Below are positions 17,003-42,445 of a DNA stretch of 64,000 nt, one piece after another. The DNA is taken from contig OY760074.1 in assembly GCA_963663035.1 (NCBI GenBank), positions 3,392,001 through 3,456,000 of the forward strand, read 5' to 3'. This stretch comes from Acidobacteriota bacterium. Its GTDB lineage: Bacteria > Acidobacteriota > UBA6911 > RPQK01 > JADFOI01. The translations under genes and the position numbers were made by a program. The notes below the pieces were generated by a model, which saw nothing but the letters and a program-made list of their open reading frames with translations, made no database searches and was not told the origin of the DNA. Every line of letters begins with the position of its first letter. Position 1 is the stretch's first letter.

Positions 17003-17106
17003 AATTGCCTCACTGCTTTGGCGAGATGTTTCCAACAAGAAACAGGAAAGAATTGGGAATTATGCTCTTCAATATGGTGCTCTTCAATAAGGAAGAGTGT
17101 GTCGAC
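17003..17106 (+). repeat. 104-bp repeat, copy A (inverted partner at 25018-25121)
   Basis: 2 mismatches to the reverse complement of 25018-25121; contains GCTCTTCAATA twice. Confidence 0.92.
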
Positions 17107-17341
17107 TCACCGTGACCGCTAAGCAAGGTATAGCCCTGGCCACGGTATCGTTGCCATTCTCGTCTTCAAGGTCGCCGAAGAGTCTCCGGAGCATCAAGCG
17201 TTCAAGCTCAGAAACGTGGCCCGTGCTTTAGGCACCGATGACCCACCCAGCCCCATCGAACCCGTAACAGGCAGCGACGGTGAAATTGAACTGTTCGGAT
17301 CGGCGCCCCCTGTTGCGGCGTGCTTTTCTTACATGCACTGA
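17105..17341 (+). pseudogene. 5'-truncated cohesin-like gene with ACFSYMH tail (not in the ORF track)
   Basis: HGIVAILVFKVAEE...VTGSDGEIELFGSAPPVAACFSYMH* with TGA at 17339-17341; aligns with the C-terminal halves of 19811-20377 and 41876-42445. Confidence 0.85.
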
Positions 17342-17569
17342 ACGACAACGGATCGGTTGGAAATGCGCTCAGCGGACCACTTGCCTTGGGCGAGACAGAG
17401 ACTGACTCTATCCACGCGAGTCAGCCGCCCGGGCAAGCTAGCCAGGAGTACAAATTTAAATTGGCCGTGTAGGCTATTCAGGGTGAGGAATATACATTCC
17501 CGGTGCGCTGAATAGAAGTAGAAAGTGGAGGTCAAGCGTTGTTGAGGTGTTCTATGAAGGAGGTGTTCT

Positions 17570-19285
17570 ATGAAGAAGGAGAGTTGGTTTTTTCGTAGGG
17601 TTTCGGTGTGGGTGTTTTCTTTCGTGAGCGTGGGTTTGGCTGGGGCTCAGAGCCTACCCCGGGAAGTGATCGCCTATGCCGACATGGTGTTGTACAACGG
17701 CAAGATTCTGACCGTCGATGAGCAGTTCTCGATCGCCGAAGCAGCAGCCATTCGAGATGGAAAGTTTCTGGCGGTAGGAGACAAGGAGAAAATCCTTGCC
17801 ATGGCGGGGCCCCAGACCCGGCGAGTGGACTTGCAGGGACGCAGCATGGTTCCGGGATTTATCGACACCCACCTGCACTCGGCCTTTCTCGGCAATATTG
17901 AAAAGGGTGGATTGCCGGTTAAGTTCAAGGATGTCGCCAGCGGTCTGGAGGAGATCCGACAGATCGTGGCGAAGTTTGCTCCGGGAGAGCCGGTTTACAT
18001 AAGAGGACCGAGCGTCAAACCCCTGGTGGCGGACGTCACTTTAGCCCAGCTGGATGCGGCTGCACCTGAGAACCCCATCTCCATTAGCTGCCAAAACAAC
18101 CAGGTGGTGGTCAACAGCTTGATGCTGGAAAAGGTTCCAGCCGATACGCCGGGTATCTTAAAAGACGCCCAAGGCAAGCCCACCGGTCAGTTGAGAGGAG
18201 GAGCGTCGGGAATTGTTCTCTATGAATTGAGACCCTGGCCGGATGTGGAAGGATTGGTGGTCAAACAGAAACAGGAGTTCAGGGCCTATCTGGCTCAGGG
18301 GCTAACCACCATCATGGGGATCGCCGAGGGTTTGTCGGTGTCCGTCTTCCGGGAGTTGTGGAAAGACGAAGAGCTGGAGCCGCGTGTGCGAGTGATCCAC
18401 GAGTTCTTGCGTCGAAATAGCAGCCCGGAAGCCTATCTGAAGCGAATTGGCAATCTGACCGACTTTGGTGACGACAAACTGAAGATCATGGGGGTCACGG
18501 TCCAAGTGGTGGATGGTTCCACCGGGCCCGGGTCGGCTCTGACCTCCAAGCCAAAGCTGAATTCGCCTTCCGGCGATCCGTACGGGCCGTACGGCCAGAA
18601 CAAGTGGGAGGAAACCGGTGACGTGGCCACCAGCGATCGCCGCAACATCATCCTGGGCAATCGCTATGGCTGGACCATTTCGGGCCTTCACAGCTCCGGA
18701 GACGTGAGCAACACCCTTTTGCTCGATGCTTTTGAAGAGGCGCATCAAGAGAAATCCCTGGTGGGCCGGCACTTTGGGATTGACCACGGCATGATGTGGA
18801 AAACGGAGCACTATGATCGGATCAAGGAGATGGACGTGGTTCCTAGTCTTTATTCCAAAGCGCTTTACAACAATGACAGTCTGGTTCAGATGTACGGGAT
18901 AGACCAGGTGTATACTTTCCAGCCAGTCAAATCCATGATCGCTGCCGGTATCAAACCGGCAGCGGAAGGGGACGCGCGCCCCCCTCACTCAGCTCCCCTG
19001 TTCAATATCACAAAGTGGATTACGCGAAGGGATGATCATGGTCGTCTCATCAATCCGGAGGAGAAGGTCAGCAGACAGGAAGCGCTTTACATGTACACGG
19101 TGTGGGCCGCTCGTTACAGCGGCGAACAGGACATTCTTGGCTCCATCGAACCGGGAAAGCTGGCTGATCTGGTCGTACTGGCGGGCGACTACATGACCTT
19201 CCCCGAAGATGAGCTGGACAAACTTCGGGTCTTGATGACGGTGGTTGGGGGTAAAGTCGTTTACGAGGTGTCCGGGGCTTTTTAG
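17570..19285 (+). CDS. Exported YtcJ-like amidohydrolase (Amidohydrolase_3), type A
   Basis: Signal peptide; PGFIDTHLH, GLHSSGD, IDHG, AEGD and GSIEPGKLADLVVL motifs. Confidence 0.93.
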   Translation: MKKESWFFRRVSVWVFSFVSVGLAGAQSLPREVIAYADMVLYNGKILTVDEQFSIAEAAAIRDGKFLAVGDKEKILAMAGPQTRRVDLQGRSMVPGFIDTHLHSAFLGNIEKGGLPVKFKDVASGLEEIRQIVAKFAPGEPVYIRGPSVKPLVADVTLAQLDAAAPENPISISCQNNQVVVNSLMLEKVPADTPGILKDAQGKPTGQLRGGASGIVLYELRPWPDVEGLVVKQKQEFRAYLAQGLTTIMGIAEGLSVSVFRELWKDEELEPRVRVIHEFLRRNSSPEAYLKRIGNLTDFGDDKLKIMGVTVQVVDGSTGPGSALTSKPKLNSPSGDPYGPYGQNKWEETGDVATSDRRNIILGNRYGWTISGLHSSGDVSNTLLLDAFEEAHQEKSLVGRHFGIDHGMMWKTEHYDRIKEMDVVPSLYSKALYNNDSLVQMYGIDQVYTFQPVKSMIAAGIKPAAEGDARPPHSAPLFNITKWITRRDDHGRLINPEEKVSRQEALYMYTVWAARYSGEQDILGSIEPGKLADLVVLAGDYMTFPEDELDKLRVLMTVVGGKVVYEVSGAF

Positions 19286-19489
19286 TAGGAATTTGCCACC
19301 CGGGCGGCTGCAGCAAGCAAGAAAGGGCTAGGGAATAAGACCGTCCCCCCTCTTAGCTGATTTGCCATTTTGGGATCAAACAATTCATCCAGAAATACAG
19401 GGGGAAAGGTCACAGTTTTCTGGGGTAGAGTGGAAAAGATTGGCCGGTCCATGGCTCGCCTATCCTCTAAGCAACTCTCCAGCAACCAC

Positions 19490-19600
19490 AAGAAGAACAC
19501 TACAGACACAGCTTGGCCACTCAAAGGTTTCTACAACCGACGACATCTACACCCACGTGGAGGACAAGGAACTGGAGAAGACAGCTTCAAGCAGTGAAAA
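19490..19600 (+). pseudogene. Tyrosine recombinase/integrase C-terminal remnant
   Basis: QTQLGHSKVSTTDDIYTHV (LGH...T..YTH box II). Confidence 0.75.
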
Positions 19601-19810
19601 AACTCCCCTTTGTTCCGGACAATAGCCACCTGGCAAGGATCTGTTTTCAGATGAGATCGTAGTCAAAACCCAGGGAGGTCGTTCTGAGTTTTACAGACAT
19701 TGGGGAGAACTGAGGGCCGAAGGATAACCCGTTTTGAGAGGCTGGTCATTCCAGAGGGAGAGTGACTTCGGTCCCACAGCGATCGGCGGCTGAAGTACCG
19801 TAAAGTGGGC

Positions 19811-20377
19811 TCAGTGCATGTAAAAAAAACAGGCTGGAATGGCTGGAATGTATCCCAAAAACAAAATGAAGCCGTCTTCGCCACCGACCTCCAGGAACTG
19901 CCCTTCCTTGGTCTCGGCCGTCTGCCTGAGATTTCGGACAGGAATACGGCTTCCAAGCTCGGTGCCCTCCGGAATCTCGAAGGTGAGTGTACACAACACC
20001 CCCTCCGGTAGGGCTTGCTCCGCACCGATGTCAATTGTAAGGATTTTATCTCCCTCTTCGGAGTCTCGTGTCCGAACGTTCAACTCGGCATGGGCGCCAT
20101 CACTGGCAGAGCCTTTTTGGAAGCTGATGAAGGAAATCTGTTCTGGCGAGTAGGCGATCTCGAGGGATATCTTGCTCACAGACGCCGCTTCCGGCGCGAT
20201 CATGGTGATCGGTATGTCCACCTGCTCACCCGGGCTGACGGTCGCGGTTACCTTCCCCACGTCCAGGTTCACCGGGCGTTCCAACTGGGGAAAGACGACG
20301 GCCCCGATGATAATCATCGGCCAGGGCATCAGGCCATATCTGTGCAAGTATCTCCTTCCGGAGAAGCTGGAAAACAA
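19811..20377 (-). CDS. Small exported cohesin-like protein with IPACFFYMH C-terminal tail
   Basis: Hydrophobic N-terminus; PGEQVDIPI...LEIAY...GVLCTLTFEI cohesin-like pattern; 12 bp downstream of an amidohydrolase. Confidence 0.8.
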   Translation of the reverse strand: MFSSFSGRRYLHRYGLMPWPMIIIGAVVFPQLERPVNLDVGKVTATVSPGEQVDIPITMIAPEAASVSKISLEIAYSPEQISFISFQKGSASDGAHAELNVRTRDSEEGDKILTIDIGAEQALPEGVLCTLTFEIPEGTELGSRIPVRNLRQTAETKEGQFLEVGGEDGFILFLGYIPAIPACFFYMH

Positions 20378-20389
20378 ATCCTAGTAGGC

Positions 20390-22294
20390 TTACAGGGCCC
20401 CTTCCGCCTGGTAGACAATCTCTCCACCCACGACGGTCAAGAGCGTCTTTATGGTGTGTACTTCATCCGCCGGAATCGTGAAGTAGTCCTTGTCGATAAC
20501 GATGAAATCCCCAAGCTTTCCGGTTTCCAGCGATCCGATCTGGTCCTCTCGGAGCAACTGTTCCGCACCCCATATCGTGGCGGCCTTCATCAGGGTGATC
20601 CGATCCAAGGCTTCGGCCTGATTGTACAGGATGTCCTGATCCGGCATCCTGCGGGTCAAAAAGAACTCCAGAAAAGCCCAATACGAACCATCCCATTCAT
20701 CCGGGTAGTCCATATCCTTGGATTGCAGAGGAACCTTGGTGAGGTGGGCGTCCGTGTTGAATACGACATGGACCCCGGCCTTGACCAGAGTTCTAACAGG
20801 AGCGATCCATTTCATGTATTCTTCACCAAAAACGCTCAGGAAAATACCGCCTTTGCTCCAGGACCGGACCTGATATCCGTTGAAACCGGGCATGATTCCA
20901 TAGTACGCCATCTTCTGAGCCTGATCCGGACGGATGATCGGATTGTGATCAAGACTGATCCGGACGGCTTTGACCTCATCCAAGGTCACGTTTCCACTAC
21001 CGATGGCCTCTTCAATCAATCGGAACAAACCATCGTAAGTCCCGTCGGTATAGCCATGCAGGAATCCGATTCGCAGGCCTGATTCCAGCGCCGATCTGAC
21101 GTTCCGGTAGCCTGAAGACTGCTCGAAATTGATCTGGTCCGGACACGGAGTGGTCGTCCGGGTGACCGGCGGCGTCACTCCGGGTGGAGCCTCGGCCGTG
21201 GTACAACTAAAACCGTTGGGGCTCCGGTCCTCCCAGGTTTCATTGCTGACTCCGGCGTTCCAGATGTAGTCATTCCCGATTCCCCGGAAGTCTCCAAGAT
21301 ACCGGTAAATAGGACTGAAATCATCCTGCTCGCCGGGAGCCCCTCCCCCATATTTGGTGTTCCAGATGGTGCCCCACCACCAGGCCCACCGGGTGGGCAG
21401 TTCGCCCCTTTCGTAAAGCAGTCGGGTCGCCTTCATGATCGAAGGGGTGCCGTAGTAGTGATTACCGAAGGTGGTGATGCCCTGGGGTGCCACACAGGTC
21501 AGTAACTCTCGCTTCAGAAAGTCCGCCACCACCTCTGGCTTCTTCCGAAAGAGAATGTCATAGAGGACTCCGGTTCTTGCTGGCAGCTGGAACATCTCCC
21601 GTCCCAGCAGTCTGGTCATCTCTTGGGCGGCCAGGGTGTTGTTGACACTGGGAGCGATGGCGGTGTTGCCATAGACCATGGTGGGATTGTCGGGGGCAAG
21701 CCTGTCCAAAAATTCCTTGGTGATCGAACCCCCGATCATGGGCCAGGTGATGTTCCTGGATTCCGCCACGTCGTCTTTGGCAAACAAAACCACCCAAATC
21801 CACTTACCGGGACCGAGTTCCTGTGCCCGCTGCCTAATCACGCGTTCCAGGGAAGTCAGTAATTCCTGCTCGTTATCACCCGTGGCATAGACCATTTTCA
21901 GTTGGAGATCATTGTACCTGCGGGCCGTCTCCTCACCCTCAGCGCCCAGCCAGTGCTCTACAGCCCAAAGGTGGGGGTGAGTGTGACCGTCGATCAAGCC
22001 CGGCAGCACCCTCTTGCCCTTCACATCCAGGATGCGGGTACTGGGTCCGGACAGAAACAGGACGTCATCATTGCTTCCCAGGGCCAGGATTCTTCCATCC
22101 CTGACCGCCATCGCCTCGACTTCGGACATCGCTCTGTCCATTGTCGTGATCTTACCGTTGGTGACGATCAGATCCGGGTACGCATTCAATCTGTTGAGCT
22201 TCTCTGCCAGTACCGAGTCCTCTTGTGCCAGAATCGGAGTAGCAGAGAATAAGAAGATAAAAAGATATGCCAGCCTGTAAGCGGGGTTTTTCAA
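20390..22294 (-). CDS. Exported YtcJ-like amidohydrolase, type C (divergent)
   Basis: Signal peptide; PGLIDGHTH, FLHG, LDHN, FNTDAH and GSLETGKLGDF motifs. Confidence 0.92.
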   Translation of the reverse strand: MKNPAYRLAYLFIFLFSATPILAQEDSVLAEKLNRLNAYPDLIVTNGKITTMDRAMSEVEAMAVRDGRILALGSNDDVLFLSGPSTRILDVKGKRVLPGLIDGHTHPHLWAVEHWLGAEGEETARRYNDLQLKMVYATGDNEQELLTSLERVIRQRAQELGPGKWIWVVLFAKDDVAESRNITWPMIGGSITKEFLDRLAPDNPTMVYGNTAIAPSVNNTLAAQEMTRLLGREMFQLPARTGVLYDILFRKKPEVVADFLKRELLTCVAPQGITTFGNHYYGTPSIMKATRLLYERGELPTRWAWWWGTIWNTKYGGGAPGEQDDFSPIYRYLGDFRGIGNDYIWNAGVSNETWEDRSPNGFSCTTAEAPPGVTPPVTRTTTPCPDQINFEQSSGYRNVRSALESGLRIGFLHGYTDGTYDGLFRLIEEAIGSGNVTLDEVKAVRISLDHNPIIRPDQAQKMAYYGIMPGFNGYQVRSWSKGGIFLSVFGEEYMKWIAPVRTLVKAGVHVVFNTDAHLTKVPLQSKDMDYPDEWDGSYWAFLEFFLTRRMPDQDILYNQAEALDRITLMKAATIWGAEQLLREDQIGSLETGKLGDFIVIDKDYFTIPADEVHTIKTLLTVVGGEIVYQAEGAL

Positions 22295-22465
22295 GAAGCA
22301 CCTCCAGAGTCTGTATCCTATTCGAGGGAAACCTGGGTGTCAATCTTGCTTTTGACGGCTCGCTACGAGGGAGAGGGGAGTTTTGCCGGATTAAGGGACC
22401 GCTTGCGTCGCCCGCACCGCAACCCAAATCGAACGCCCGAAGCGGTGGAGTGGCAGGTTGTGGAG

Positions 22466-22662
22466 CTAGCCTCGACGACCTAATGAGAGTGATGTATCTC
22501 AAGTACGACCGAGCAGACAACAGGTACAGAACCGCAGACATTGCAGACGAGCTGAAGGCACTGACCGGCAAGGATTACTCAGACTTCCGTAGACGGTACG
22601 CACAAGGTCGAGAGATTTTCCCAGTTGGTCAATCTTCAGCCTTGGTGACCTGTACCTACTAA
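22466..22662 (+). pseudogene. Probable M61 (glycyl aminopeptidase-like) C-terminal remnant
   Basis: SLDDLMRVMY...ELKALTGKDYSDF.RRYAQGRE pattern; no N-terminal part. Confidence 0.5.
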
Positions 22663-23009
22663 ATATCTCTTCGTCAGCTCAGGGCCCGGGAATGGCGCCG
22701 ATCTGGGAGGGCCGTGTCTTCTACGGCCTGCACGACAAACTCAGAGAGGACATCCTCCGCTGGGGTAAGCACCAACCGTTTGGATGGCTTTTTTCTCATT
22801 GAACCCCCAAAGAAGAAAACGTTGAAGGACAACACCGCCGATGATAACGGGAAGCTGGTCCCAGTAGAAATGCTCTGGATCCCAGCGATCTACTGGCTCG
22901 CTTTTAACCCGAATTCCGTTGATCAATTCACGTTGTCGATGGCCTCTCCTTGACGGCGATAGTCGAACGTCTTCAGCACTCAGCGGCTAGGTGAGTTCCT
23001 GACACCGAA

Positions 23010-24056: not shown

Positions 24057-24125
24057 TATTCCTTCCCCTTCTTCATCAAGTGGACTGCTTAATACACTGG
24101 CTTTTTCAAGAGAAAATCAAAAGAT

Positions 24126-24847
24126 CTAAACGTCAAAGTAACTCTTCAGCTGTGTACTAAGGCAGTAATTCTGATCACAGTTCACCGTCTGCTTCGTATA
24201 CGTTTTTCCACCGACGATCGTGCAATCAACCGGCGACTCACTAATCTTCTCCTCGGGCACGGTCATATAGTCTCCACCCAGCACTACCAGATCCGCAAGC
24301 TTACACTCCTCAATCGATCCCACGACCTTCTCATCGCCGGAGTAGGCAGCACTCCAGATCATCGCCATGCGTAGGCCGTCCTCCCGACTGATCGCCTCGC
24401 GCGCTCCCCGGGCTGAGCCTTGCTCACCCCAGCCCGAATTTCTTCGAGGCACTTCTCCACGGTCTCACATGTCAGGCTGCCGCCGTTGACCATGCCGGCG
24501 CCGCGGGCAACTAGAAAATGACCATGGCAATGCGGATCGATGAATCCAGGAACCACACTGCGACGTTCAACATCGATCACCTGCTTCGCAGGCCCCTTCA
24601 AAGCCAGGATCTCCTGATTCGTTCCTTCTTTCAGAAAACGGCCGTCGCGGATGGCTACGGCCTCAACCATAGAAAACTGATCGTCAACAGTCAGAATTTT
24701 GCCGTTCTGAAGAATCAACTCCGGATAGCTCACGAGCTCCGCCGAGATCGATTGACCCGCCGTGTCGGTTGCCGTCGAGAAAACAACCCATAACACTGTT
24801 AACGACAAGGAGAAAATCCGCTTAGCTGTGCCGAATAATACCTTCAT
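24126..24847 (-). pseudogene. YtcJ-like amidohydrolase with a large internal deletion
   Basis: N-part (NGKILTVD...PGFIDPHCH) is fused out of frame near 24400 to the C-part (ISREDGL...GSIEECKLADLVVLGGDY). Confidence 0.88.
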
Positions 24848-25017
24848 CCGAGAATCTCCTTTCTTGTTGGCTCATTACAAGCCTCACAATCTCCTTTTTT
24901 GCTATCTGTTACTCCCTAAGCCCTAACTCCGAAATTTCTTCTCCATTCGATGACCCCTTTCTCTTTCGCAATGTTCTTGTTTGCTATTCTTGCTTCCCTA
25001 ATTCAACGACGTCAAAG

Positions 25018-25121
25018 GTCGACACACTCTTCCTTATTGAAGAGCACCATATTGAAGAGCATATTTCCCAATTATTTCCTGTTTCTTGTTGGAAACATCT
25101 CGCCAAAGCAGTGAGGCAATT
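25018..25121 (-). repeat. 104-bp repeat, copy B
   Basis: Reverse complement of 17003-17106 with 2 mismatches. Confidence 0.92.
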
Positions 25122-25126
25122 CGGGC

Positions 25127-25155
25127 TTGCCTTCATCCCCCATAAGGCTTAAAAT
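25127..25155 (+). promoter_or_regulatory. Putative sigma70 promoter
   Basis: TTGCCT-17-TAAAAT. Confidence 0.55.
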
Positions 25156-25194
25156 CTAGGCCAAGTCACACCCGTTTTGAGAGGGAGTCAAGGA

Positions 25195-25326
25195 GTGATC
25201 GGCCAAACCGTCTCGCACTACAAAGTCGCTGAGAAGCTCGGCGGTGGAGGCATGGGTGTCGTCTTCAAGGCTGAGGACACCCTCTTGGGTAAAAATGTAG
25301 CCCTGAAATTCCGAGTCAGAAAATAA
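25195..25326 (+). pseudogene. Ser/Thr protein kinase N-terminal stub
   Basis: [39 protein letters not shown], then a stop. Confidence 0.88.
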
Positions 25327-28997: not shown

Positions 28998-29618
28998 TTA
29001 AAGGATTACGGTATTTTCTTGAGCTGCGGAATGGACAGATTCAACAAGGTCACGGCCTGGATCAACGACTATGGGCCACAAATTGAGCCCTTCATCCAGC
29101 CTCTGAAAACCTATGTTGACTCGGGAGTGCAGTTGACTGGCCAGCACTTTGGTGGCGGCGCCCGAAATCCTGGAAGCCCGAGCTTCCGTCCTCCCTTTTT
29201 CTTGCCCTGGCAAATCATCACACGCAAGTATGACGGGAAGGTTTGGCAGCCGGAAGAGCGGCTTGACCGGGTGCGTGCCATAAAGATCTATACATCCTGG
29301 GCAGCAAAATATGTCCAAAAGCCGGATCAGCTCGGCTCTCTGGAGAGGGGTAAGTTTGCCGACTTGCTGGTGATCGACCGAGATTACTTTACCGTTCCTA
29401 TTGACGACATTCTGAAAATTCGTCCTTTGATGACCATGGTGGGGGGCAAGATGATCGTGCTGCAGGAGTCACTGGCAAAGGACTTTGGAATGCAACCGGT
29501 GGGTCCTGCTTACAACTTTAGGGATGAGGATGTGCGGCATGTCGGTGAGTCGCTGTCTGGAATCGAGGAAGAGTTTTCGAGTGAAGAAGAGCGCATGGAT
29601 CAAGAGAGTAGGGATTAG
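28998..29618 (+). pseudogene. 5'-truncated type B amidohydrolase
   Basis: LKDYGIFLSCG...GQHFGG...PPFF..WQ.ITRKYDGKVWQPEER matches the C-terminus of 52305-54335. Confidence 0.88.
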
Positions 29619-33737: not shown

Positions 33738-33750
33738 GATGCTACTCCTC

Positions 33751-35628: not shown

Positions 35629-35780
35629 CTTTCCTCCTCCTTTTCTTCCCTTCTGTGTCTTGATCCTATCCTAATATTGTGCAACCTATTAATATAGTGC
35701 AATCTCTAATTGAAAGGCTATTTGCCGACATTCGAATCGGGATAGCACATGGATCCATTCAATCACTTGCTTCAGTCAAG

Positions 35781-35807
35781 GGAAATGTGGTCTGTTCCCA
35801 CATTTCC
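35781..35807. repeat. Hairpin or REP-like element after the dehydrogenase gene
   Basis: GGAAATGTGG-TCTGTTC-CCACATTTCC. Confidence 0.6.
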
Positions 35808-35820
35808 ATCGTGCGTGTCA

Positions 35821-36798
35821 CTAACCTTCGTAGTCCTGGGCGACGGCCAGAGGAGGCTGACCTTCCAAAACCCGTTTCATGTTTTGATAGGCGAACTCTC
35901 CGCGGCGGCACCAGGTATTCCAGGTCGTGCCCGCGCTGTGAGGAGTGACGATGACGTTTTCCATCTCGAGGAGGAGGTTGTCCCGTTCCACTGGCTCCTT
36001 TTCGAAGACGTCCAGACCGGCCCCGGCGATCCGGCCGTCTTTTAAGGCTTCAATGAGGGCCGCCTCGTCAATGACTGCTCCCCGGCTGGTGTTGATGAGG
36101 ACAGCAGTGGATTTCATCAGTGCCAGGCATTCCCGGTTGACCAGGTGATGGGTCTCAGGAGTCAGAGGTGTGTGGCAGGAGATAATGTCTGAGGAGCCCA
36201 ACAGTTCCTCCAGGGATACCCTCTCGACGTTGAGCTCTCGCTCACGTTCCGGTGTGAGTGGGTATTTGTCGTGGTATTGGACTTTAACCTGGAAGGCCTG
36301 AACCCGACGGGCCACCTTCAAGCCGATGTTGCCGATTCCCACCAGGCCAACCAGCTTGCCAGCCATTTCGAAGGTGTTGAACCCGTCAATGGGGGCTTTC
36401 CAACGGCCCTCTCGTGTGGCCCGGTCGCTCAGGATGAGACGTCTGTAGAGAGCAAGCATCAGCAGCACGGTGTGGTCGGCCACGGCCCAGGAGTTGGCGC
36501 CCCCGTTGTTGGCGCAGGGAATCCCCAGTTCGCCCATCAGCTCGAGGTTCATACGGTCGTATCCTGCCGCCAGCAGCTGAACCAGACGGACCTTGGAAGC
36601 CGCTCGCAGCAGGCCCTCCGTCAGCCCCGCCCGGTACACCATCAGGAAGTCAGCGTCTTTTACGGCTTCCATCTGTTCTTCCTCAGATTGCCCTCCCTCA
36701 AGGGCGATGGTGCTGAAACCATCGGGCGCGCAGGAAGTGATCAGATCCACGAGTGGTTGATTCAACCCGTGAATGAACACCACTTTTGCTTTTGTCAT
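35821..36798 (-). CDS. D-isomer 2-hydroxyacid dehydrogenase
   Basis: GIGNIG, INTSRG, GLDVFEKEP and TPHSAG motifs. Confidence 0.94.
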   Translation of the reverse strand: MTKAKVVFIHGLNQPLVDLITSCAPDGFSTIALEGGQSEEEQMEAVKDADFLMVYRAGLTEGLLRAASKVRLVQLLAAGYDRMNLELMGELGIPCANNGGANSWAVADHTVLLMLALYRRLILSDRATREGRWKAPIDGFNTFEMAGKLVGLVGIGNIGLKVARRVQAFQVKVQYHDKYPLTPERERELNVERVSLEELLGSSDIISCHTPLTPETHHLVNRECLALMKSTAVLINTSRGAVIDEAALIEALKDGRIAGAGLDVFEKEPVERDNLLLEMENVIVTPHSAGTTWNTWCRRGEFAYQNMKRVLEGQPPLAVAQDYEG

Positions 36799-36870
36799 GT
36801 GCCCAGTTTTCCTGCCCACTGTACCGTTTGTTTCCCTTACTCTACCATGAGAGAATGCCGCTTGAATATC

Positions 36871-39045
36871 ATGCGGTTGACCATACTGTTGATTCTTTTC
36901 CAGACGGGCTTAATGGCTCAGCAAGAGCAGCCTGCCGGGGGGCAGCACGGGAACAGATCGCTTCGCATCCACCAGATCACTGAAGCTCCCACCCTGGATG
37001 GAGTCCTGAATGAGCAGATGTGGAGAGATGCGCCTGTGACCGGTGATTTCCTGCAAAGGGATCCCAGCGAAGGACTGCCGGCAAGCGAGAAGACCGAGGT
37101 TCTAGCCCTTTACGACGACCAAAACCTTTACTTTGGAATCAGATGCTTTGACAGCCAGGCAGAGGGAATTCTGGCCACAGAGCTGAGGCGGGATAACGGC
37201 TTTGTCAATGATGACAGTTTTGCCATCATCCTGGACACCTTCCACGACCACCGAAACGCTTTTTTGTTCCGAATTAACCCCAGAGGGACCCAATACGATG
37301 CGCTGATCACCGAGGAAGGCCGGGTCGTTAACCAAAGCTGGGACGAAACGTGGGAAGTCGAGGCCAACATGGATGAGGAAGGCTGGTCGGCCGAAATCAA
37401 GATTCCGCTGAAATCTATCCGTTTTACCGCCTCCGGAGAGAACCCTATCTTTGGAATTGACTTTGAGCGAGTCATCCGGCGCAAGAACGAGTTCAGCAAC
37501 TGGAATAACTACAGGCGGGGTTTTAGCTTTCAGCAGATCTCTCAGGGAGGACATTTAACGGGAGTTGAAGTGGATGCGGGAGTCCAGCTTCGAGTCAAGC
37601 CCTTTCTCAATACCCGGGTGCTCACGCGGGGACAGGAAGAGCGAAGCACCATTGTGTTGGGAGACATCGGGCTGGAGGATTTGAAATACCCGCTGACGTC
37701 AAGTCTTACGGTGGAGCTGACGGCCAATACGGATTTTGCCCAGACCGAGGTGGATAACCAGGTCATCAACTTTGACCGCGTGTCGCTTTTCTTTCCGGAA
37801 AAGAGAGACTTCTTCCTGGAAGGAGCCGGCATCTTTGATTTCGGCACGGTGCGAAGCGAGTCATCGACGGAAATAAAACTTTACCACAGCAGGAGAATCG
37901 GGCTTTCCAGTGGTCAGGCCATCCCCATACTGGTGGGGGGTAAGGTGAGCGGCAAGCTGGGAGACAAATACACTGTAGGATTTTTGGAAGTTCAAACGGT
38001 TGATTTCCAGGGCAAACCCGGCGACAATTTTGCTGTTTTCCGGCTGAAGCGAGATCTTTTCTCTCGCTCTTCCATTGGAATGTCGCTCACCAATCGGCAA
38101 GCCGAAGGGGGAGACTTCAACCGTGTATTTGGGGTCGATCAAAACCTGGTCTTTTTTGAACACCTGAAGCTTACCGGGATGGTGTCCAAGTCCTTCACCG
38201 ATGGCGTGCAGGACAAGGAGTGGATTGGAGCGGTGGCCGGCGCCTGGCAGGATGATTTATTCGACATCGGCATGGACTACTGGGTCAAAGAGGAAAATTT
38301 CGAGGCCGATTTGGGTTTCCTGGCCAAAAAGGGGGGGATGCGTAAGTATGTTCCGCACTTTCTTTTTACGCCCCGCCCCAACAGTGAAACGATTCGTCAG
38401 TTCCGGTGGGGAGTCCGCTATGATAATTTTCGACGTCTGGGGGAGGACCGGCCTGAATCGGAGATGGTTCACATCCTGAACATCACAAGCTTTGAAAGTG
38501 GAAGTACTTTTCGAGGCTCCCCTCATTACCAGATCGAAGATGTCAAAGCCGACTTTTCTTTGCCGGGTGGACTGGTCGTCCCTCCCGGACACTACAGCTG
38601 GTGGCGTCTACCCCTGACCTATGTCTTCAATCCCGCCCGAAAGTTCAGCGGCAGCTTTGGATACCGGTTTGAACCGGACTTTTACGGAGAAGGCGGCAAA
38701 CGCCACAGATTCCAGATCAATCCTGTCCTGAAGCTGGGCAGCAACTTTTCAACTTCGATCAGTTATACCTTTTTTGACGTTCAGCTCTCGGGAGGCGAGG
38801 CGGTCAAATTTCACCAGGTAAACAACCGCTTCAATCTTTCCCTGAGCCGGAAATGGCTGACCAGCACGCTGGTCCAATACAACAGCACCAGTGATTTGAT
38901 CGGGATCAATTTCCGGCTGAACTACATCTATCGCCCGGGCGATGATCTGTTTATTGTTTTCAATGATTTTCGCAATCGCAGCGAGCCAGTGACGGAGCTC
39001 GATCGCTCCTTGACCGTGAAACTCACCCACTCCTTCGAATTTTGA
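36871..39045 (+). CDS. DUF5916-type protein (CBM9-like N-domain plus outer-membrane barrel)
   Basis: LDGVLNE..W, LDTFHD, WSAEIKIP, NTDFAQTEVD and FFPEKRDFFLE motifs; terminal Phe. The true start is downstream of the ORF-track start. Confidence 0.9.
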   Translation: MRLTILLILFQTGLMAQQEQPAGGQHGNRSLRIHQITEAPTLDGVLNEQMWRDAPVTGDFLQRDPSEGLPASEKTEVLALYDDQNLYFGIRCFDSQAEGILATELRRDNGFVNDDSFAIILDTFHDHRNAFLFRINPRGTQYDALITEEGRVVNQSWDETWEVEANMDEEGWSAEIKIPLKSIRFTASGENPIFGIDFERVIRRKNEFSNWNNYRRGFSFQQISQGGHLTGVEVDAGVQLRVKPFLNTRVLTRGQEERSTIVLGDIGLEDLKYPLTSSLTVELTANTDFAQTEVDNQVINFDRVSLFFPEKRDFFLEGAGIFDFGTVRSESSTEIKLYHSRRIGLSSGQAIPILVGGKVSGKLGDKYTVGFLEVQTVDFQGKPGDNFAVFRLKRDLFSRSSIGMSLTNRQAEGGDFNRVFGVDQNLVFFEHLKLTGMVSKSFTDGVQDKEWIGAVAGAWQDDLFDIGMDYWVKEENFEADLGFLAKKGGMRKYVPHFLFTPRPNSETIRQFRWGVRYDNFRRLGEDRPESEMVHILNITSFESGSTFRGSPHYQIEDVKADFSLPGGLVVPPGHYSWWRLPLTYVFNPARKFSGSFGYRFEPDFYGEGGKRHRFQINPVLKLGSNFSTSISYTFFDVQLSGGEAVKFHQVNNRFNLSLSRKWLTSTLVQYNSTSDLIGINFRLNYIYRPGDDLFIVFNDFRNRSEPVTELDRSLTVKLTHSFEF

Positions 39046-39068
39046 AGGGTGGAAGCGAAATCTTGCTG

Positions 39069-39773
39069 TCACTCCAGTTTGGCGAGTTTTCCTGAATAGT
39101 ACCCAAAGAAGTGATCCAGGATGTGGTCGTCTGGATACTTCTCTCTATCAGTCATGCTCTCGGTGGGGATGGGGGTGGGTGTCCCCAGAATTGAGGCCAA
39201 TACCTGGGTCTTGGCAGCTTTCTCAAGAGTCAGGGTTGTAATCAGCGTCTCTTCGATGCTCTTGCCCACCACGAATGCTCCATGACCCTTATGCATAATG
39301 GCGCGCGCGTTTCCGAGTTGCTGGGCCATCCTCTCTCCCATCTCATTGGTTCCCACATAGAGGGGATACTCTTCGTAGATGGGAACTCCCTCAAAAAAAA
39401 GGCATCCATCACGGGCGATGGGTAATATGCTCTTTCCGGCAGCGGCCAGTACATTCGCGTAGGGAGGGTGACAGTGAGCCATACACTTGACATCTTTCCT
39501 GGAGCGGAACACGGCGGTATACACGTAGTACTCGCCCATTGGCTCTGGATGCTTGCCCTCCACAACGTTCCCGTCAAAATCCATGATGACGATGTCATCC
39601 TCTTGCACATCCGCAATGCCCTTCCCAGAATCGTGGATGTGTCCGGGTATGAGGACCTTGTCGCCGTCTGGATGCAGCCAGCACATGTGCCCAAGCCCTC
39701 TGTCAGTGGCCCCTTCCATGTCAATGATCCGGCAGCTTCTGGCCAGTTTTTCCTTCACTTCAGCCAAGTTCAT
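39069..39773 (-). CDS. Class II aldolase/adducin family protein
   Basis: GH..., GE...Y..V...R.DV, HCHP and GHG motifs. Confidence 0.88.
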   Translation of the reverse strand: MNLAEVKEKLARSCRIIDMEGATDRGLGHMCWLHPDGDKVLIPGHIHDSGKGIADVQEDDIVIMDFDGNVVEGKHPEPMGEYYVYTAVFRSRKDVKCMAHCHPPYANVLAAAGKSILPIARDGCLFFEGVPIYEEYPLYVGTNEMGERMAQQLGNARAIMHKGHGAFVVGKSIEETLITTLTLEKAAKTQVLASILGTPTPIPTESMTDREKYPDDHILDHFFGYYSGKLAKLE

Positions 39774-39901
39774 AAGCTCTCTCTTCCTTTCTTTTTCCCT
39801 CTATTTCCTGATCCGCGCTCACCATAAGGCTATCCGCTGGCCTTGTCAACTCAAGCCCCGCTGCCCAGTGGCTAAGCGGGAGGTGGTAGATCAAGGTTCC
39901 C

Positions 39902-39930
39902 TTGACAGAATTGCCTGTCATCCCTAAACT
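39902..39930 (+). promoter_or_regulatory. sigma70 promoter with an operator-like palindrome
   Basis: TTGACA-17-TAAACT; TGACAG-N6-CTGTCA overlaps the -35 box. Confidence 0.65.
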
Positions 39931-40047
39931 GGACCCATTGAAATCTAGGCGCAGCCGACCTTTGGCTCTCAAACTCGGATGTCGAAGACACAGACAGAAG
40001 GATCGTCTCAATTCTTTAATACTCACTTGCAGGAAAGGACGACTGAT

Positions 40048-41853
40048 ATGCCAGGAATAAAGGATCGGTGGTTTGTTTTACTCTTATCCATGAGTGCATT
40101 GCTGGTCTTGACGACAGGGCTGACCAGTTTGCAGGCAGCGACTCCTCTGGATGCGGATTGCAGTGACTATATTGGTCCCGAATTGATGGTTCATGGTAAG
40201 AGCGTCGGGCCCAAAACATGCAACATTGCTGAGGAGAAGAGTATTCAGAATGTCCAGGGTGTGCCATATCGTCGACTGGAAGTCGAGGTCAGTGGCAATA
40301 TCGCGGGTTACACGGCCAAAGCGGCTCCTCGCGTCGAGATGCTGACCGATGTCCCTGAGTTTACGGCTCAGAGGGGCAACCTGGGACCCTTTTTCCACGG
40401 CATCGGTGTCTATTACGCAGAGAAAGGGTCCGGAATGACGATCTTTATGCCGGAGTCCTCTGACGACTGGAATGGGAAGCTCTTTGTCCTGGTTCATGGC
40501 TCTGGTTCCTATGGTACCGTTGGCGATCTTGTTCCCAGAAAACCCGATCAATACAACCCCTTGATGGGAGACAACTCCTACGCCGGCCTGATGATTGACA
40601 AGGGTTATGCGGTCGCCTACACCAGCCGTCCTGCCGCGGGGGCGAGTTCTGCAGATGAGCAGGTGACTCTGGATGGTGGTGAGGTGACCCTGGATGGGAA
40701 AAGTTTTGGGTATCACTTGGGCATCATTCGAGACTGGACACAGATCGCTAAGAATCTCCTCGAATCCCAGCTCGGCCAAAAGCCTTCTCGAACCTACCTC
40801 TACGGTCATTCAGCTGGGGCAAGTATAGGACGTCTCTTTAATTATTCTCCTGGTAAGAATCTCGACGCCGATGGTGAGAAAGTCTTTGATGGAATGCTGT
40901 TGGACGATGCGGGTGGCGGATGGTATTGGCCAGTCCAGTACTTCGTGCGCACCGAAGACACCGGAGAGCAGTTTCTCCTGAAGCGAGACGATCGAGATCA
41001 CCTGCAATTTGATGAGGCCCACAAGAAGAACTTTGCTCTCCAGATTGACATTGCACACCAGGCCTATGCCGGCGCAGGATTTGTCATTGGGGAGTATCTT
41101 TCCGTCAAGCGAGAAAATGAGCGCCTTCTCCGCGAGAAGGGGTTGGGCGCACTGAGCAGAACTTACGAAATCGTCGGGGTTAGCCACGCTGATTCCGGAA
41201 GCATCTGGCCCCGCGAAACCTACACCCAAAATCTGGACTTGAGCGGACTCTATGACGCGGTGATTGATGTTCTGGATCAGTGGGTGGAAGAGGGTGTCGA
41301 GCCTGGCCCGAGCCGATCCGATGACTACCTTTTGGGTGACGTCGACGGAGACGGACAGCTCGAGAATGCAGCTGTGGCCCTGCCTGAGATCGCTTGTCCC
41401 ACGGGAGTGTATTATGAGTTTCCAGAGGGTGTCCGCAGTCCTGGTCGCACCGGCTTTGCAGCCTATCTGAGTACTCCCCAGCGTCCTCTCAATGCTGACA
41501 CCACAACGATTCCGGACGACTTTGACGAGAACTGGCTTGAGCCACTGGACAGCCGGGGATACCTTCTCGACATGAACAATAACCATGTCCGCGATACCCG
41601 GCCCAGTATCACCCAGGCTTGGCAAAGACGGGCCAGAGAGGGCAAAGAGTCTGGGACCCTGGGATTCGATGAAGCACTGACTCATCACCGCTACGTGAGC
41701 TGCGTCTCCAGGGTTGCCTCCCAGCTCTTTGAGCAAAAGCTGCTGGGCAGTAGCGCTGTACTGCATTACATCCAAACGGCCATGGATTCCGATATCGGAC
41801 GAGGGACTTCCGCTCAGGCAGGCGGTCTCGTTATTGGACATGACCCTCGTTGA
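40048..41853 (+). CDS. Exported alpha/beta-hydrolase-like protein (tannase-like N-region)
   Basis: Signal peptide; WNGKLFVLVHG, KGYAVAYT and TYLYGHSAG nucleophile elbow; FDG and VSH motifs. Confidence 0.75.
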   Translation: MPGIKDRWFVLLLSMSALLVLTTGLTSLQAATPLDADCSDYIGPELMVHGKSVGPKTCNIAEEKSIQNVQGVPYRRLEVEVSGNIAGYTAKAAPRVEMLTDVPEFTAQRGNLGPFFHGIGVYYAEKGSGMTIFMPESSDDWNGKLFVLVHGSGSYGTVGDLVPRKPDQYNPLMGDNSYAGLMIDKGYAVAYTSRPAAGASSADEQVTLDGGEVTLDGKSFGYHLGIIRDWTQIAKNLLESQLGQKPSRTYLYGHSAGASIGRLFNYSPGKNLDADGEKVFDGMLLDDAGGGWYWPVQYFVRTEDTGEQFLLKRDDRDHLQFDEAHKKNFALQIDIAHQAYAGAGFVIGEYLSVKRENERLLREKGLGALSRTYEIVGVSHADSGSIWPRETYTQNLDLSGLYDAVIDVLDQWVEEGVEPGPSRSDDYLLGDVDGDGQLENAAVALPEIACPTGVYYEFPEGVRSPGRTGFAAYLSTPQRPLNADTTTIPDDFDENWLEPLDSRGYLLDMNNNHVRDTRPSITQAWQRRAREGKESGTLGFDEALTHHRYVSCVSRVASQLFEQKLLGSSAVLHYIQTAMDSDIGRGTSAQAGGLVIGHDPR

Positions 41854-41875
41854 GACATGAAGGGAAAGTAACAGT

Positions 41876-42445
41876 ATGAAAAAGATCGTGATGGCCCTGT
41901 CACTACTAGGGCTGATGGTAGTTGTTCTCTTCTCACAGGGCCAGCCTGGCGTTAGTCTGGATCTGGGTGTGGTCATAGACTCCTTTTTCCCGGGTGATCA
42001 GGTGGGGCTACCCGTTACTCTGGTCAGCCGAAACGACGCTCAGGTTGGAGATGTCACCCTGGAGGTAGCCTTTCCGTCAAAGGTGATTTCTCTGGTTGAG
42101 GTGACCCTGGGTAGTGGGGCCACAGCGGCGGGAGCCGAGGTGAAAACAGAGGTCGTCGATGCTCCCGAAGAGGCCGCTGCCGAAGCGGAAGGGGAGGAGT
42201 CTGTGGATCTGGAACGAAAGATCCTGAGCGTGAATATCTCCGCATCCACTGCGCTGCCTGATGGTCTGTTGGCCACGCTTACCTTTGAGGTGACCGATGA
42301 GATATCAATTAACCACGAGATTCACATGGAAAATGTGAGTCAAACGGCTCTGTCCCTGGATGGACAGGAGGTACGAGCTCGCGGCATAGATGGCACCATA
42401 ACATCGATTGAGTTTATTCCTGCCTGTCTTTTCTATATGCATTGA
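41876..42445 (+). CDS. Small exported cohesin-like protein with IPACLFYMH C-terminal tail
   Basis: Signal peptide; PGDQVGLPV...LEVAF...GLLATLTFEV pattern; 11 bp upstream of an amidohydrolase ATG. Confidence 0.82.
   Translation: MKKIVMALSLLGLMVVVLFSQGQPGVSLDLGVVIDSFFPGDQVGLPVTLVSRNDAQVGDVTLEVAFPSKVISLVEVTLGSGATAAGAEVKTEVVDAPEEAAAEAEGEESVDLERKILSVNISASTALPDGLLATLTFEVTDEISINHEIHMENVSQTALSLDGQEVRARGIDGTITSIEFIPACLFYMH

Follow-up and report, generated by a model that had tools for sequence, protein, structure and literature searches.

A Cys- and His-containing C-terminal hexapeptide conserved on exported cohesin-fold proteins encoded near amidohydrolases in Acidobacteriota

Certain Acidobacteriota from marine and groundwater settings encode 5 to 16 exported proteins of predicted cohesin fold per genome, which diverge in their bodies and end in one common tail peptide (a small residue followed by Cys, [Phe/Leu], Phe, [Tyr/Phe], [Met/Leu/Ile] and a terminal His-COOH). 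We tentatively propose, at somewhat less than even confidence, that these proteins are modular periplasmic adaptors, in which a variable cohesin body is combined with a constant tail that would dock on a common receptor, with a TPR protein as the candidate for that receptor. The tail family is restricted, as far as found, to certain Acidobacteriota and corresponds to no described system, as a preceding sequence-only reading had also held: NCBIfam models gave no match to tail-family proteins, and a literature search returned neither the motif strings nor a paper joining Acidobacteriota, amidohydrolase and cohesin.

The DNA analyzed here, referred to as the window, is the 64,000-nt stretch covering forward-strand positions 3,392,001 to 3,456,000 of contig OY760074.1 (assembly GCA_963663035.1, Acidobacteriota bacterium), and it belongs to a host genome of 3.59 Mb that is 96.6% complete. 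The features on which the analysis draws are the following (window coordinates unless marked as genome coordinates).

15429-16930, reverse strand: 1.5 kb insertion sequence with an rve-type integrase, disrupted, just upstream of the remnant
17107-17341, forward strand: remnant of a tail-family gene, its 3' third (frame 17123-17341), ending in VAACFSYMH
17570-19285, forward strand: exported Amidohydro_3 (YtcJ-like) gene with an N-terminal hydrophobic segment (PF07969, E 9e-56)
19811-20377, reverse strand: tail-family gene P0001, 188 aa, ending in IPACFFYMH (hexapeptide codons 19814-19831; body profile E 3.7e-42)
20390-22294, reverse strand: exported Amidohydro_3 gene P0032, 634 aa, with a signal-like N-terminus (PF07969, E 1.3e-31)
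36271-39045, forward strand: DUF5916/CBM9-like large envelope protein (PF19313, E 1e-11; PF06452, E 1.9e-5)
39979-41853, forward strand: exported alpha/beta hydrolase, Abhydrolase_10-like (PF20091, E 2e-8), co-oriented with P0002 and ending 22 bp before it
41876-42445, forward strand: tail-family gene P0002, 189 aa, with signal peptide, putative cohesin-fold body and acidic loop, ending in IPACLFYMH (hexapeptide codons 42425-42442; stop 42443-42445)
42457-44184, forward strand: exported Amidohydro_3 gene, first of three in tandem (PF07969, E 1.8e-53; frame start 42442 or 42457)
44193-45947, forward strand: second tandem Amidohydro_3 gene (PF07969, E 1.5e-55)
46039-47796, forward strand: third tandem Amidohydro_3 gene (PF07969 match at genome 3438318-3439775, E 8.1e-45)
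genome 744846-746225, 1383500-1384609 and 2567470-2568543: host TPR proteins

Translation confirmed the three tails that the sequence-only reading had reported for the window, as well as the position of each tail gene beside a co-oriented exported amidohydrolase, all of the latter being matched by PF07969. P0032 lies upstream of P0001 across a gap of 12 bp (20378-20389), a layout seen more often than any other in the family, and the remnant is followed by its amidohydrolase after 228 bp (17342-17569). The TGA of P0002 is followed by 11 bases containing GGAG and then by the ATG at 42457, and one RNA-library contig spans positions 42393-42764, from P0002 into this amidohydrolase. RNA-library contigs over P0002 were present in 4/4 runs examined, all from one study.

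The tail is the most constrained part of these proteins. In an alignment of 49 sequences with a mean column identity of about 20%, the invariant columns are confined to the C, F, Y, M and H positions in the tail, an invariance that is partly by construction since the rows were gathered via the tail pattern. A body profile without the tail, however, recovered 11 members from the host genome, all of which end in C-x4-H-COOH. Both results bear out the earlier inference that the tail is the functional part, as it is the sole invariant part across paralogues, and P0001 and P0002, described as only loosely similar in their bodies, share 36% identity. Across the relatives, exactly five residues follow the Cys in 104/104 unique members, as they do in 11/11 host members, and the strict core consists of the Cys at position -6 and the terminal His. 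Tyr swaps with Phe and Met with Leu or Ile (the variants CFFFMH, CFFYLH, CFYYLH and CFFYIH are found), and neither Met nor Tyr is strictly required. The tail codons differ among copies at synonymous sites, and 27 of 29 P0002 homologues end in PAC[LF]FYMH, with the tail kept down to 43% identity. In every copy seen, Cys and His are separated by four hydrophobic or aromatic residues, a composition more in keeping with burial in a binding pocket than with a loop that only binds metal. The tail Cys is the only one of the mature part in 84/104 members; such an invariant lone Cys points to some chemistry in addition to docking.

Tail matches occur in these genomes beyond chance. The tail DNA pattern gives 2 to 15 matches (forward or reverse-complement) in each of 14 genomes, while the same pattern reversed gives none in 41 genomes, and all seven frames ending in YMH-stop in the whole 3.59 Mb host genome end in C[FL][FS]YMH and belong to the tail family. 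Among the motif carriers in genome-collection loci, 69/84 frames match the body profile, with chance frames or frames cut at locus ends making up the remainder, so the motif is confined to one protein family in these loci and was found on no diverse cargo. The family falls into 36 orthogroups at a threshold of at least 45% identity, and the presence of diverged paralogues with one common tail in each genome points to variable specificity combined with a constant connector.

A conserved C-terminus on a variable "leader," rich in modifiable Cys, Tyr, Met and His, could also be the core peptide of a RiPP-like product that is modified by the neighboring enzymes and then released, as the sequence-only reading had suggested. 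We consider this extremely improbable: the "leader" would be a folded domain of 150 residues, an N-terminal hydrophobic export segment is present in 90/97 members by a crude hydrophobicity test while a RiPP precursor is cytoplasmic, and no radical-SAM, YcaO, lanthipeptide or similar maturase is found among the recurrent neighbors.

With respect to the body, the AF2 model of P0002 (mean pLDDT 89.7, pTM 0.81) retrieves cohesins from the PDB as at least its top 30 Foldseek matches (E down to 2.4e-10; TM by target length 0.63 to 0.79), and on the basis of this model we are confident that the tail-family body adopts the cohesin fold, in agreement with the earlier label "cohesin-like." The Pfam Cohesin model (PF00963, cut-off 24.1 bits) scores P0001 above its cut-off (36.6 bits, E 6.3e-9) and P0002 below it (20.1 bits, E 7.7e-4), and does not match the remnant. 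Residues 178 to 189 of the P0002 model are coil, with residues 181 to 189 showing an average pLDDT of 66, which suggests a free tail. The family thus shares its fold with the cohesin modules of cellulosomal and non-cellulosomal scaffoldins, and its neighbors likewise encode secreted hydrolases, but it differs in being a single domain of about 190 aa in a Gram-negative periplasm, without dockerin and with the invariant Cys...His hexapeptide at the C-terminus. No solved cohesin is known to carry such a tail. The classical cohesin partner is missing, since dockerin PF00404 has no match across the 96.6% complete genome, and the hydrolases adjoining the window tail genes carry only Amidohydro_3/_1 or Abhydrolase_10 domains according to Pfam, with no dockerin.

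The tail genes had been described as always next to amidohydrolases, which holds for the three window copies but not generally. In the host genome, 7/11 members directly adjoin an Amidohydro_3 gene, compared with a background of 2.4% (binomial P ~ 1e-9), and 55/104 unique members do so in the relatives (38 of them co-oriented), with 67 lying within two genes. The motif search with neighbor tabulation that had been put forward as a check finds the tail conserved and linked to Amidohydro_3 genes in other genomes, although adjacency is not universal. The commonest layout, with the amidohydrolase directly upstream and co-oriented, accounts for 29/104 relatives' members, several pairs are separated by gaps of between -4 and about 20 bp, and the linkage is kept inside orthogroups across genera. 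In 49/104 cases no amidohydrolase adjoins the tail gene, and five tail genes lie behind cytoplasmic UbiD-like genes. Recurrent neighbors include hydrolases, UbiD, TonB-dependent-type barrels, DUF5916 and similar families; the DUF5916/CBM9-like family recurs near tail genes and adjoins TPR genes, and the Abhydrolase_10-like family is found directly upstream of tail genes in 2/52 relatives' loci and elsewhere in several neighborhoods.

The amidohydrolases themselves are numerous in tail-positive genomes. Among the matches listed, strong Amidohydro_3 matches number at least 19 to 29 in 13/14 tail-positive relatives versus 0 to 12 in 26 tail-negative genomes, and five additional tail-positive genomes hold 9 to 30. 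The host genome has about 56 copies for only 11 tail proteins. The window neighbors are assigned to Amidohydro_3 by the Pfam cut-off together with the conserved HxH and His residues, which are predicted metal ligands. They share PF07969 (E 1e-31 to 1e-56) and these ligands with YtcJ-like Amidohydro_3 enzymes, from which the host copies are set apart by export and by an expansion to about 56 members in a genome of 3.6 Mb. In addition, they score lower on the Pfam model than the copies in tail-negative relatives (about 100 to 300 versus 350 to 400 bits).

This association raises the question of whether the tail engages the amidohydrolase metal center, either as the arm of a periplasmic metallochaperone (for Zn, Fe or Ni after Sec export) or as a pseudo-substrate or "cysteine-switch" lid, whose thiolate and terminal His/carboxylate would fill the binuclear site until release. 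An invariant lone Cys and a C-terminal His are good metal ligands, the tail genes most often lie directly downstream of co-oriented amidohydrolase genes at short gaps, and the family co-occurs with the amidohydrolase expansion. Urease, a member of the amidohydrolase superfamily, requires metallochaperones, and one orthogroup as well as the fused forms described below sit in MoxR-DUF58-vWA-TPR operons, the kin of which serve cofactor insertion. Nevertheless, H104 and H106 (HxH), H413 and H450 are invariant in 48/48 aligned amidohydrolases, so no ligand is missing, and the earlier suggestion that the tail donates a Cys or His ligand into the barrel finds no support. The swaps of Met with Leu/Ile and of Tyr with Phe, as well as four conserved bulky hydrophobic residues that would be unexpected in a metal-delivery loop, further argue against engagement of the metal center, as do the tail genes without an adjoining amidohydrolase, some of which neighbor other enzymes or cytoplasmic UbiD. 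Adjacent amidohydrolases also show no excess of unpaired Cys (odd Cys counts in 5/27 adjacent versus 7/22 non-adjacent enzymes). We therefore regard a role at the metal center as rather unlikely.

The residues around the Cys suggest another reading, to which we assign a low probability. The residue before it is A, S or G in 96/104 members and the one at -3 to it is V, I or L in 85/104, a pattern like that of a lipobox or of a (-3,-1) cleavage site, and the tail could be a new short C-terminal processing or anchoring signal ([VIL]-x-[ASG]-Cys-Phe-Phe-Tyr-Met-His), at which an envelope enzyme would modify (lipidate) the Cys and/or cleave beside it, so that the cohesin would be fixed to the membrane or cell surface or a Cys-hexapeptide released. 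The Cys being invariant and lone, and the motif being lineage-restricted and multi-copy like known sorting signals, agree with this. The tripartite C-terminal sorting signals (PEP-CTERM, MYXO-CTERM and their kin) consist of a motif, a transmembrane helix and then an Arg cluster, and for other Cys-containing C-terminal signals the Haft preprint assigns the processing to Rce1-like proteases. The tail resembles these signals in its short C-terminal signature with an invariant Cys, its restriction to a lineage and its many copies per genome, but the chain stops five residues past the Cys and lacks both a transmembrane helix and a basic cluster, which places it outside the tripartite definition. 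Furthermore, such signals decorate diverse cargo, whereas the tail motif occurs on one protein family, and no clade-specific Rce1-like protease was found for it: the two CPBP-family (Rce1-like) proteins of the host, which served as controls, are present in 38/41 and 29/41 relatives across the whole order, tail-negative families included. The search for a cognate sorting enzyme covered Rce1-like proteins and found none with a tail-like distribution, and no candidate enzyme recurs adjoining the tail genes. Two known Cys signals were considered and set aside: the lipoprotein lipobox, [LVI][ASTVI][GAS]-Cys, lies in the signal peptide while the tail Cys is C-terminal after a folded domain, and the CaaX box is cytosolic with its Cys four from the C-terminus, while the tail Cys is six from the end of proteins with export signals.

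A covalent carrier similar to SoxY, in which the C-terminal Cys on a mobile arm would bear a substrate as thioester, disulfide or thioether to neighboring hydrolases, is very unlikely in our judgment. SoxY has a beta-sandwich fold and a mobile Gly-rich arm with a GGCGG motif, and its partner SoxZ is encoded with it in a sox cluster. SoxY resembles the tail family in being exported, in having one functional Cys close to its mobile C-terminal end and in serving neighboring enzymes, and the tail proteins are likewise exported beta-sandwiches with one conserved Cys on a flexible arm and partner enzymes encoded alongside. In place of a Gly-rich arm, though, the tail proteins have the bulky, hydrophobic CFFYMH, no sequence relationship is detectable by Pfam or NCBIfam, no Sox families occur among the tail-gene neighbors scanned, and no sulfur-oxidation or thiol-activating genes recur near tail genes. 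Carrier-bound substrates are not known for amidohydrolases.

The adaptor explanation that we tentatively prefer draws on a clade-restricted, exported TPR protein that co-occurs with the tail family and, in at least two lineages, is fused with a family member. TPR-cohesin-tail fusions are found in genus g2 (L042, 559 aa; L167, 592 aa; L168, 579 aa), and one 614 aa frame of G428 holds both TPR and tail-family matches, while G007 (L041) has a split form with a 4 bp gap between the TPR and cohesin-tail parts. TPR genes lie at most 10 kb from tail genes in G000, G003, G005 and G427. Homologues in frames of 360 to 550 aa are present in 14/14 tail-positive relatives and in 4/5 additional tail-positive genomes, with no TPR match in the tail-positive G429; in the 26 tail-negative genomes the TPR search gives generic matches only, in 5 genomes and on proteins of 737 to 1175 aa. 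Genomes of genus g3 lack the tail, the TPR protein and both control proteins and are 65 to 72% complete, so their absences carry little weight. The co-occurrence may also mirror only clade-specific gene content, as the tail-positive genomes are close kin, and in an AF2 model of a natural TPR-cohesin-tail fusion (shallow alignment, 7 sequences) the tail has a pLDDT below 50 and is not docked. The missing dockerin, the surplus of amidohydrolases over tail proteins, the tail genes lacking an amidohydrolase neighbor and the invariant lone Cys also weigh against the adaptor explanation. C-terminal peptides are established ligands of TPR clamps, examples being the EEVD of Hsp70/90 with Hop or CHIP and PTS1 with PEX5, although a terminal His is atypical for the ligands of known TPR or PDZ peptide clamps. 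In those systems, too, differing proteins share a constant C-terminal peptide that is paired with a TPR protein; in the present case the candidate partner is co-distributed, neighboring and sometimes fused, the peptide is hydrophobic with Cys and His, and the setting is the bacterial periplasm.

In the proposed mechanism, the single-domain adaptors would be exported via Sec, and the fast-diverging cohesin body would set the specificity of each paralogue, most likely for the exported hydrolase encoded adjacently and usually for a YtcJ-type amidohydrolase. The constant tail would serve as a docking peptide that plugs all paralogues into one common partner, for which the TPR protein is the best candidate, and the lone Cys and terminal His may make the docking partly metal-assisted or covalent. 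Taken further, the hexapeptide might mark a so far unseen periplasmic docking system, in which cohesin adaptors together with their own hydrolases assemble on a TPR hub beside outer-membrane DUF5916/TonB-dependent-type channels, possibly locked by metal or thiol; this extended form is speculative and we think it improbable. If true, it would be a cellulosome-like enzyme organizer in a Gram-negative envelope, for the breakdown of amide-rich organic matter.

Exported amidohydrolases make up about 3% of the small genome in these Acidobacteriota, so their hosts are probably important in turning over organic matter that contains amides, in sediments as well as in groundwater. An accessory family whose C-terminal peptide is absolutely conserved and chemically reactive offers a handle on the organization, maturation or control of this enzyme arsenal. 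If the tail turns out to act as a docking peptide for a TPR hub, as an arm for metal transfer or as a novel processing signal, bacterial envelope biology would gain a new principle, and the six residues could serve as a portable tag.

The window also holds one truncated family member. The remnant matches the body profile (E 9.8e-11) over profile positions 131 to 194 only, and its 5' part is lost, with the 74.6% DNA identity to a paralogue at genome 1534569-1534804 beginning exactly at 17107. A 104 bp repeat directly precedes this position, and no 5' fragment of the remnant gene was found near the second copy of the repeat. As a separate observation, the insertion sequence at 15429-16930, for which the Pfam rve assignment was made on a relatives' copy, has two more copies in the genome at 97 to 98% identity, and copies at 91% identity lie beside tail genes of G005.

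Translation of the window places three tails exactly where the sequence-only reading had put them, and each of the three copies is co-oriented with an adjacent Amidohydro_3 gene (gaps of 228, 12 and 11 bp; Pfam matches of the three neighbours with E values of 9e-56, 1.3e-31 and 1.8e-53):

17123-17341, forward strand: open frame of the remnant, the 3' third of a tail-family gene, terminating VAACFSYMH-stop
19811-20377, reverse strand: P0001, exported cohesin-fold protein, terminating IPACFFYMH-stop
41876-42445, forward strand: P0002, exported cohesin-fold protein, terminating IPACLFYMH-stop

The bodies are only loosely similar, as had been claimed, with P0001 and P0002 sharing 36% identity. In the whole genome (G000, a single contig of 3.59 Mb), all seven frames that end in YMH-stop carry C[FL][FS]YMH, the six codons of the tail vary at synonymous positions between copies, and the sequences after the stop are unrelated among copies, two paralogues excepted. 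The tails are thus not a product of chance and are selected as protein. A repeat or mobile element as the source of the tail, which would imply conservation at the DNA level, is ruled out by the synonymous codon differences and, apart from the two paralogues, by the differing downstream sequence. Stop-codon readthrough was also rejected, as all three stop codons are used after the tail and the frames downstream are unrelated. The two exceptional paralogues have about 25 bases in common right after their TAG stops (genome positions 2557413-2557440 and 3198391-3198418), reading CC(C)GGATTATGCATAGGT.TTCGT with an ATGCAT palindrome, a stretch found in none of the other five copies examined.

A profile of the body alone, made from the 49-sequence family alignment minus its last ten columns and run on all six-frame ORFs of G000, retrieves 11 members, every one of which ends in C-x4-H (CLFYMH in five, CFFFMH in three, and CFFYMH, CFFYLH and, in the remnant, CFSYMH in one each). 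These variants, together with CFYYLH and CFFYIH tails outside G000, reduce the strict core to a Cys at position -6 and a terminal His flanking four residues that are hydrophobic or aromatic. In a set of 104 unique members from relatives, Ala, Ser or Gly precedes the Cys in 96 and the mature part has no second Cys in 84; since this sample was collected by a DNA pattern demanding C[LF]FYMH, the invariance of its F, Y and M is partly by construction. Free of that bias are 29 homologues found by whole-protein similarity, 27 of which end in PAC[LF]FYMH, the other two being partial matches (57% and 51% query coverage) with unrelated C-termini. The ends of the profile members and of these homologues, along with the synonymous codon variation, support the sequence-only reading in taking the tail to be what matters functionally. 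That the tail might act as a covalent carrier arm by analogy with SoxY seems very improbable.

With respect to distribution, the back-translated tail pattern matches in 14 of 41 relatives at 2 to 15 copies per genome, namely in G000 and 12 of 14 others of its family (f1), in the single genome of family f2, and in none of 25 genomes from the order's other 14 families, while a reversed control pattern gives no match in the same relatives. An even sample of the phylum yields only 2 positive genomes out of 401. A scan of the genome collection returned 112 stretches, 80 of which are listed, and the record titles among the matches listed are Acidobacteriota or Acidobacteria, plus one Binatia MAG and one "uncultured bacterium". 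We observe that 69 of the 84 motif-bearing frames in these loci match the body profile, the remaining 15 being short chance ORFs in other phyla (12) or frames cut off at locus ends (3), and that strong body-profile matches are restricted to tail-positive genomes. This indicates that the motif belongs to one protein family and not to a diverse cargo. All that turns up in the order's remaining families is a distant cohesin-like domain, N-terminal in tail-less proteins of about 400 aa. G017 is counted here as tail-negative, and no conclusion hinges on it alone. Two genomes of genus g3 (G008 and G011) have neither the tail, the TPR protein described below nor the amidohydrolase expansion; they are 65 to 72% complete and both control proteins are missing there, so they are not used as evidence of co-loss.

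The body is predicted to have a cohesin fold. P0001 matches Pfam Cohesin at 36.6 bits and P0002 at 20.1 bits, narrowly below the cut-off of 24.1. An AlphaFold2 (AF2) model with the 49-sequence alignment is a confident beta-sandwich (mean pLDDT 89.7, pTM 0.81), with solved cohesins as the top Foldseek matches (E 2.4e-10) and only unnamed Acidobacteriota clusters matching in the ESM Atlas. In the model, residues 178-189 are coil, and the last block (residues 181-189) averages a pLDDT of 66. By a crude measure of hydrophobicity, 90 of 97 tail proteins have an N-terminal segment of export type, as do 76 of 79 neighbouring amidohydrolases, compared with 1 of 12 for a cytoplasmic UbiD-like control. 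No dockerin genes were found in G000, no NCBIfam model matches the tail protein, the motif strings have no match in the searchable literature, and the literature search returned no paper combining Acidobacteriota, amidohydrolase and cohesin. Within Pfam, NCBIfam and the literature searched, the earlier statement that no such system has been described therefore holds: the family is a kind of cohesin with an added C-terminal motif, and that motif fits no known signal class. The tail could also be read as a novel short signal for processing or anchoring, but this is distinctly unlikely, since the C-x4-H end does not fit the tripartite Cys-containing sorting signals described by Haft, and since both Rce1-like proteins of G000 are conserved across tail-negative families too.

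The association of the tail genes with amidohydrolases is strong, yet neither obligatory nor one-to-one. In G000, which has about 56 near-full-length Amidohydro_3 matches, 7 of 11 family members adjoin such a gene, against 70 of 2915 other genes (2.4%; binomial P of about 1e-9, based on crude gene calls). Among the 104 unique tail genes of the relatives, 55 are directly adjacent to an Amidohydro_3 gene, 38 are co-oriented with it and 67 lie within two genes of it, the commonest arrangement being a co-oriented amidohydrolase directly upstream (29/104). The linkage is kept across genera in most orthogroups and is absent in two. Adjacency was said to be invariable; this is true of the three window copies and overstated for the family at large, and a motif search with a table of neighbours confirms a conserved tail and a link far above background that is not universal. 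Strong Amidohydro_3 matches number from 19 to at least 29 per tail-positive relative (except for G007, with 3), 9 to 30 in five further tail-positive genomes, and 0 to 12 in tail-negative relatives. Other co-oriented upstream genes encode UbiD-like proteins (5 of 104) or exported proteins of one family that no Pfam model matches (5 of 104), and Abhydrolase_10-like genes also recur in the neighbourhoods.

Could the tail act directly on the metal centre of the amidohydrolase? The sequence-only reading proposed that it donates a Cys/His ligand into the barrel, but all 48 aligned amidohydrolases retain HxH and two further His, so that none is short of a ligand or needs one in trans, and we consider such action unlikely. 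An intermolecular disulfide with the adjacent enzyme was rejected, as odd Cys counts are not enriched. A complex prediction for P0001 (residues 31-188) and its neighbouring amidohydrolase P0032 (20393-22294, reverse strand; residues 25-634) scored 0.00 in both runs against a mark of 0.32; it gave no verdict and counts neither for nor against binding. A PDB sequence search with P0032 (634 aa) returned N-terminal amidohydrolase fragments only, and one with a 554 aa neighbour protein returned nothing. The further proposal of a core peptide modified by the enzymes is hardly credible for a RiPP, since the recurrent neighbours of the tail genes include no RiPP maturase. Both of these mechanisms are thereby weakened.

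A different partner is suggested by gene fusions. Fusion proteins in genus g2 (L042, 559 aa; L167, 592 aa; L168, 579 aa) consist of an exported TPR domain followed by the cohesin-tail module, and a split form also occurs there, with a free TPR gene 4 bp after a free tail gene (L041); another tail-positive genome, G428, has the fusion as a single 614 aa frame. A search for longer module-containing proteins with the family alignment found none and also missed the known 559 aa fusions, so it has no bearing on amidohydrolase-cohesin fusions. G000 has three TPR homologues, two of which adjoin DUF5916/CBM9 envelope-protein genes, while the third is the last gene of a MoxR-DUF58-vWA-GWxTD-TPR operon whose members include a tail gene 10 kb upstream. 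Every one of the 14 tail-positive relatives has TPR homologues in frames of 360 to 550 aa, as have 4 of the 5 further tail-positive genomes, whereas of 26 tail-negative genomes 5 have generic TPR matches (in proteins of 737 to 1175 aa) and 21 have none, a profile to be read knowing that the tail-positive genomes are close kin and that the control proteins, too, are missing from both g3 genomes. The AF2 model of a natural fusion has both domains folded, linker and tail at pLDDT below 50 and the tail undocked, and is uninformative on docking because its alignment is shallow (7 sequences). A short His-rich motif late in the TPR region contains a His that is invariant in 9 of 9 aligned homologues (including L169:2847-4226); it reads LHSHFxH in the fused forms, and one G000 copy terminates in DQHAH. 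This motif could be a metal site that faces the Cys/His tail. The reading that fits best, which we hold tentatively, is a modular adaptor, in which the variable cohesin body would serve the neighbouring enzyme and the constant tail would serve a common hub, the TPR protein. It draws on the flexible, reactive and strictly conserved end of a fast-diverging protein-binding fold, on the many paralogues beside different exported enzymes, and on the genetic tie to the TPR protein, whose domain type binds peptides.

The operon mentioned above, of "Bat-like" type (MoxR AAA+, DUF58, vWA, GWxTD and TPR; L171), lies outside the window at genome positions 2552346-2568543; its tail gene (2556876-2557412) is embedded with two inserted amidohydrolase genes, and the G005 orthologue directly precedes DUF58 (L014). 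Two exported families without a Pfam match, of about 519 and 456 aa (L031:7205-8761, reverse; L088:870-2237, reverse; genome 2557575-2558942), recur co-oriented directly up- or downstream of tail genes (5/104 and 4/104), and a PDB sequence search with the 519 aa family returned nothing. One orthogroup without an amidohydrolase neighbour, ending in PPAIF[AS]C[FL]FYMH (genome 3469020-3472583, L012, L025, L044, L064), precedes, in five genomes, a gene for an S41 C-terminal processing peptidase that carries a PDZ domain. In four of these genomes an SLT/LysM transglycosylase follows as well, and the remaining locus stops at a contig end; the protease may reflect meaningful recognition of the tail or conserved synteny alone. 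In another orthogroup (L046, L048, L072, L129) the tail genes adjoin a fusion of an AhpC/TSA peroxiredoxin with a DsbD N-terminal domain, which may be relevant to how the lone Cys stays reduced.

P0002 is matched at an identity of at least 99% by contigs from four metatranscriptome runs, all belonging to one study, with pieces at 41727-42119 and 42393-42764 crossing both gene boundaries. These contigs are no proof of transcription, as DNA carry-over may contribute, and only covered parts of the stretch are interpreted. The remaining features of the window concern the surroundings of P0002 and the origin of the remnant:

15429-16930: insertion sequence of 1.5 kb, rve-type integrase with split frame, just upstream of the remnant
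17003-17106 and 25018-25121: inverted pair of a 104 bp repeat, 98% identity
24201-24583, reverse strand: short Amidohydro_3 fragment, probable pseudogene
29205-29456, forward strand: short Amidohydro_3 fragment, probable pseudogene
36271-39045, 47828-50008 and 50008-52164: three DUF5916/CBM9-like genes (718-924 aa) flanking the P0002 amidohydrolase operon

The insertion sequence has two further copies in G000 (genome 2575571-2577070 and 2029347-2030846; 97-98% identity), and three G005 loci (L015, L017, L023) have copies of 91% identity immediately next to tail genes. The similarity of the remnant to a paralogue at genome positions 1534569-1534804 (74.6% DNA identity) begins at 17107, right after the first 104 bp copy, which ends exactly at the start of the truncated gene; the second copy adjoins a truncated amidohydrolase N-terminal fragment (24500-24871, reverse strand), and no sequence from the remnant's lost 5' portion was found beside it. 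This layout suggests rearrangements at the 104 bp repeat. Together with seven near-full-length Amidohydro_3 matches in the window, the Amidohydro_3 fragments mark the region as a dynamic island of amidohydrolases.
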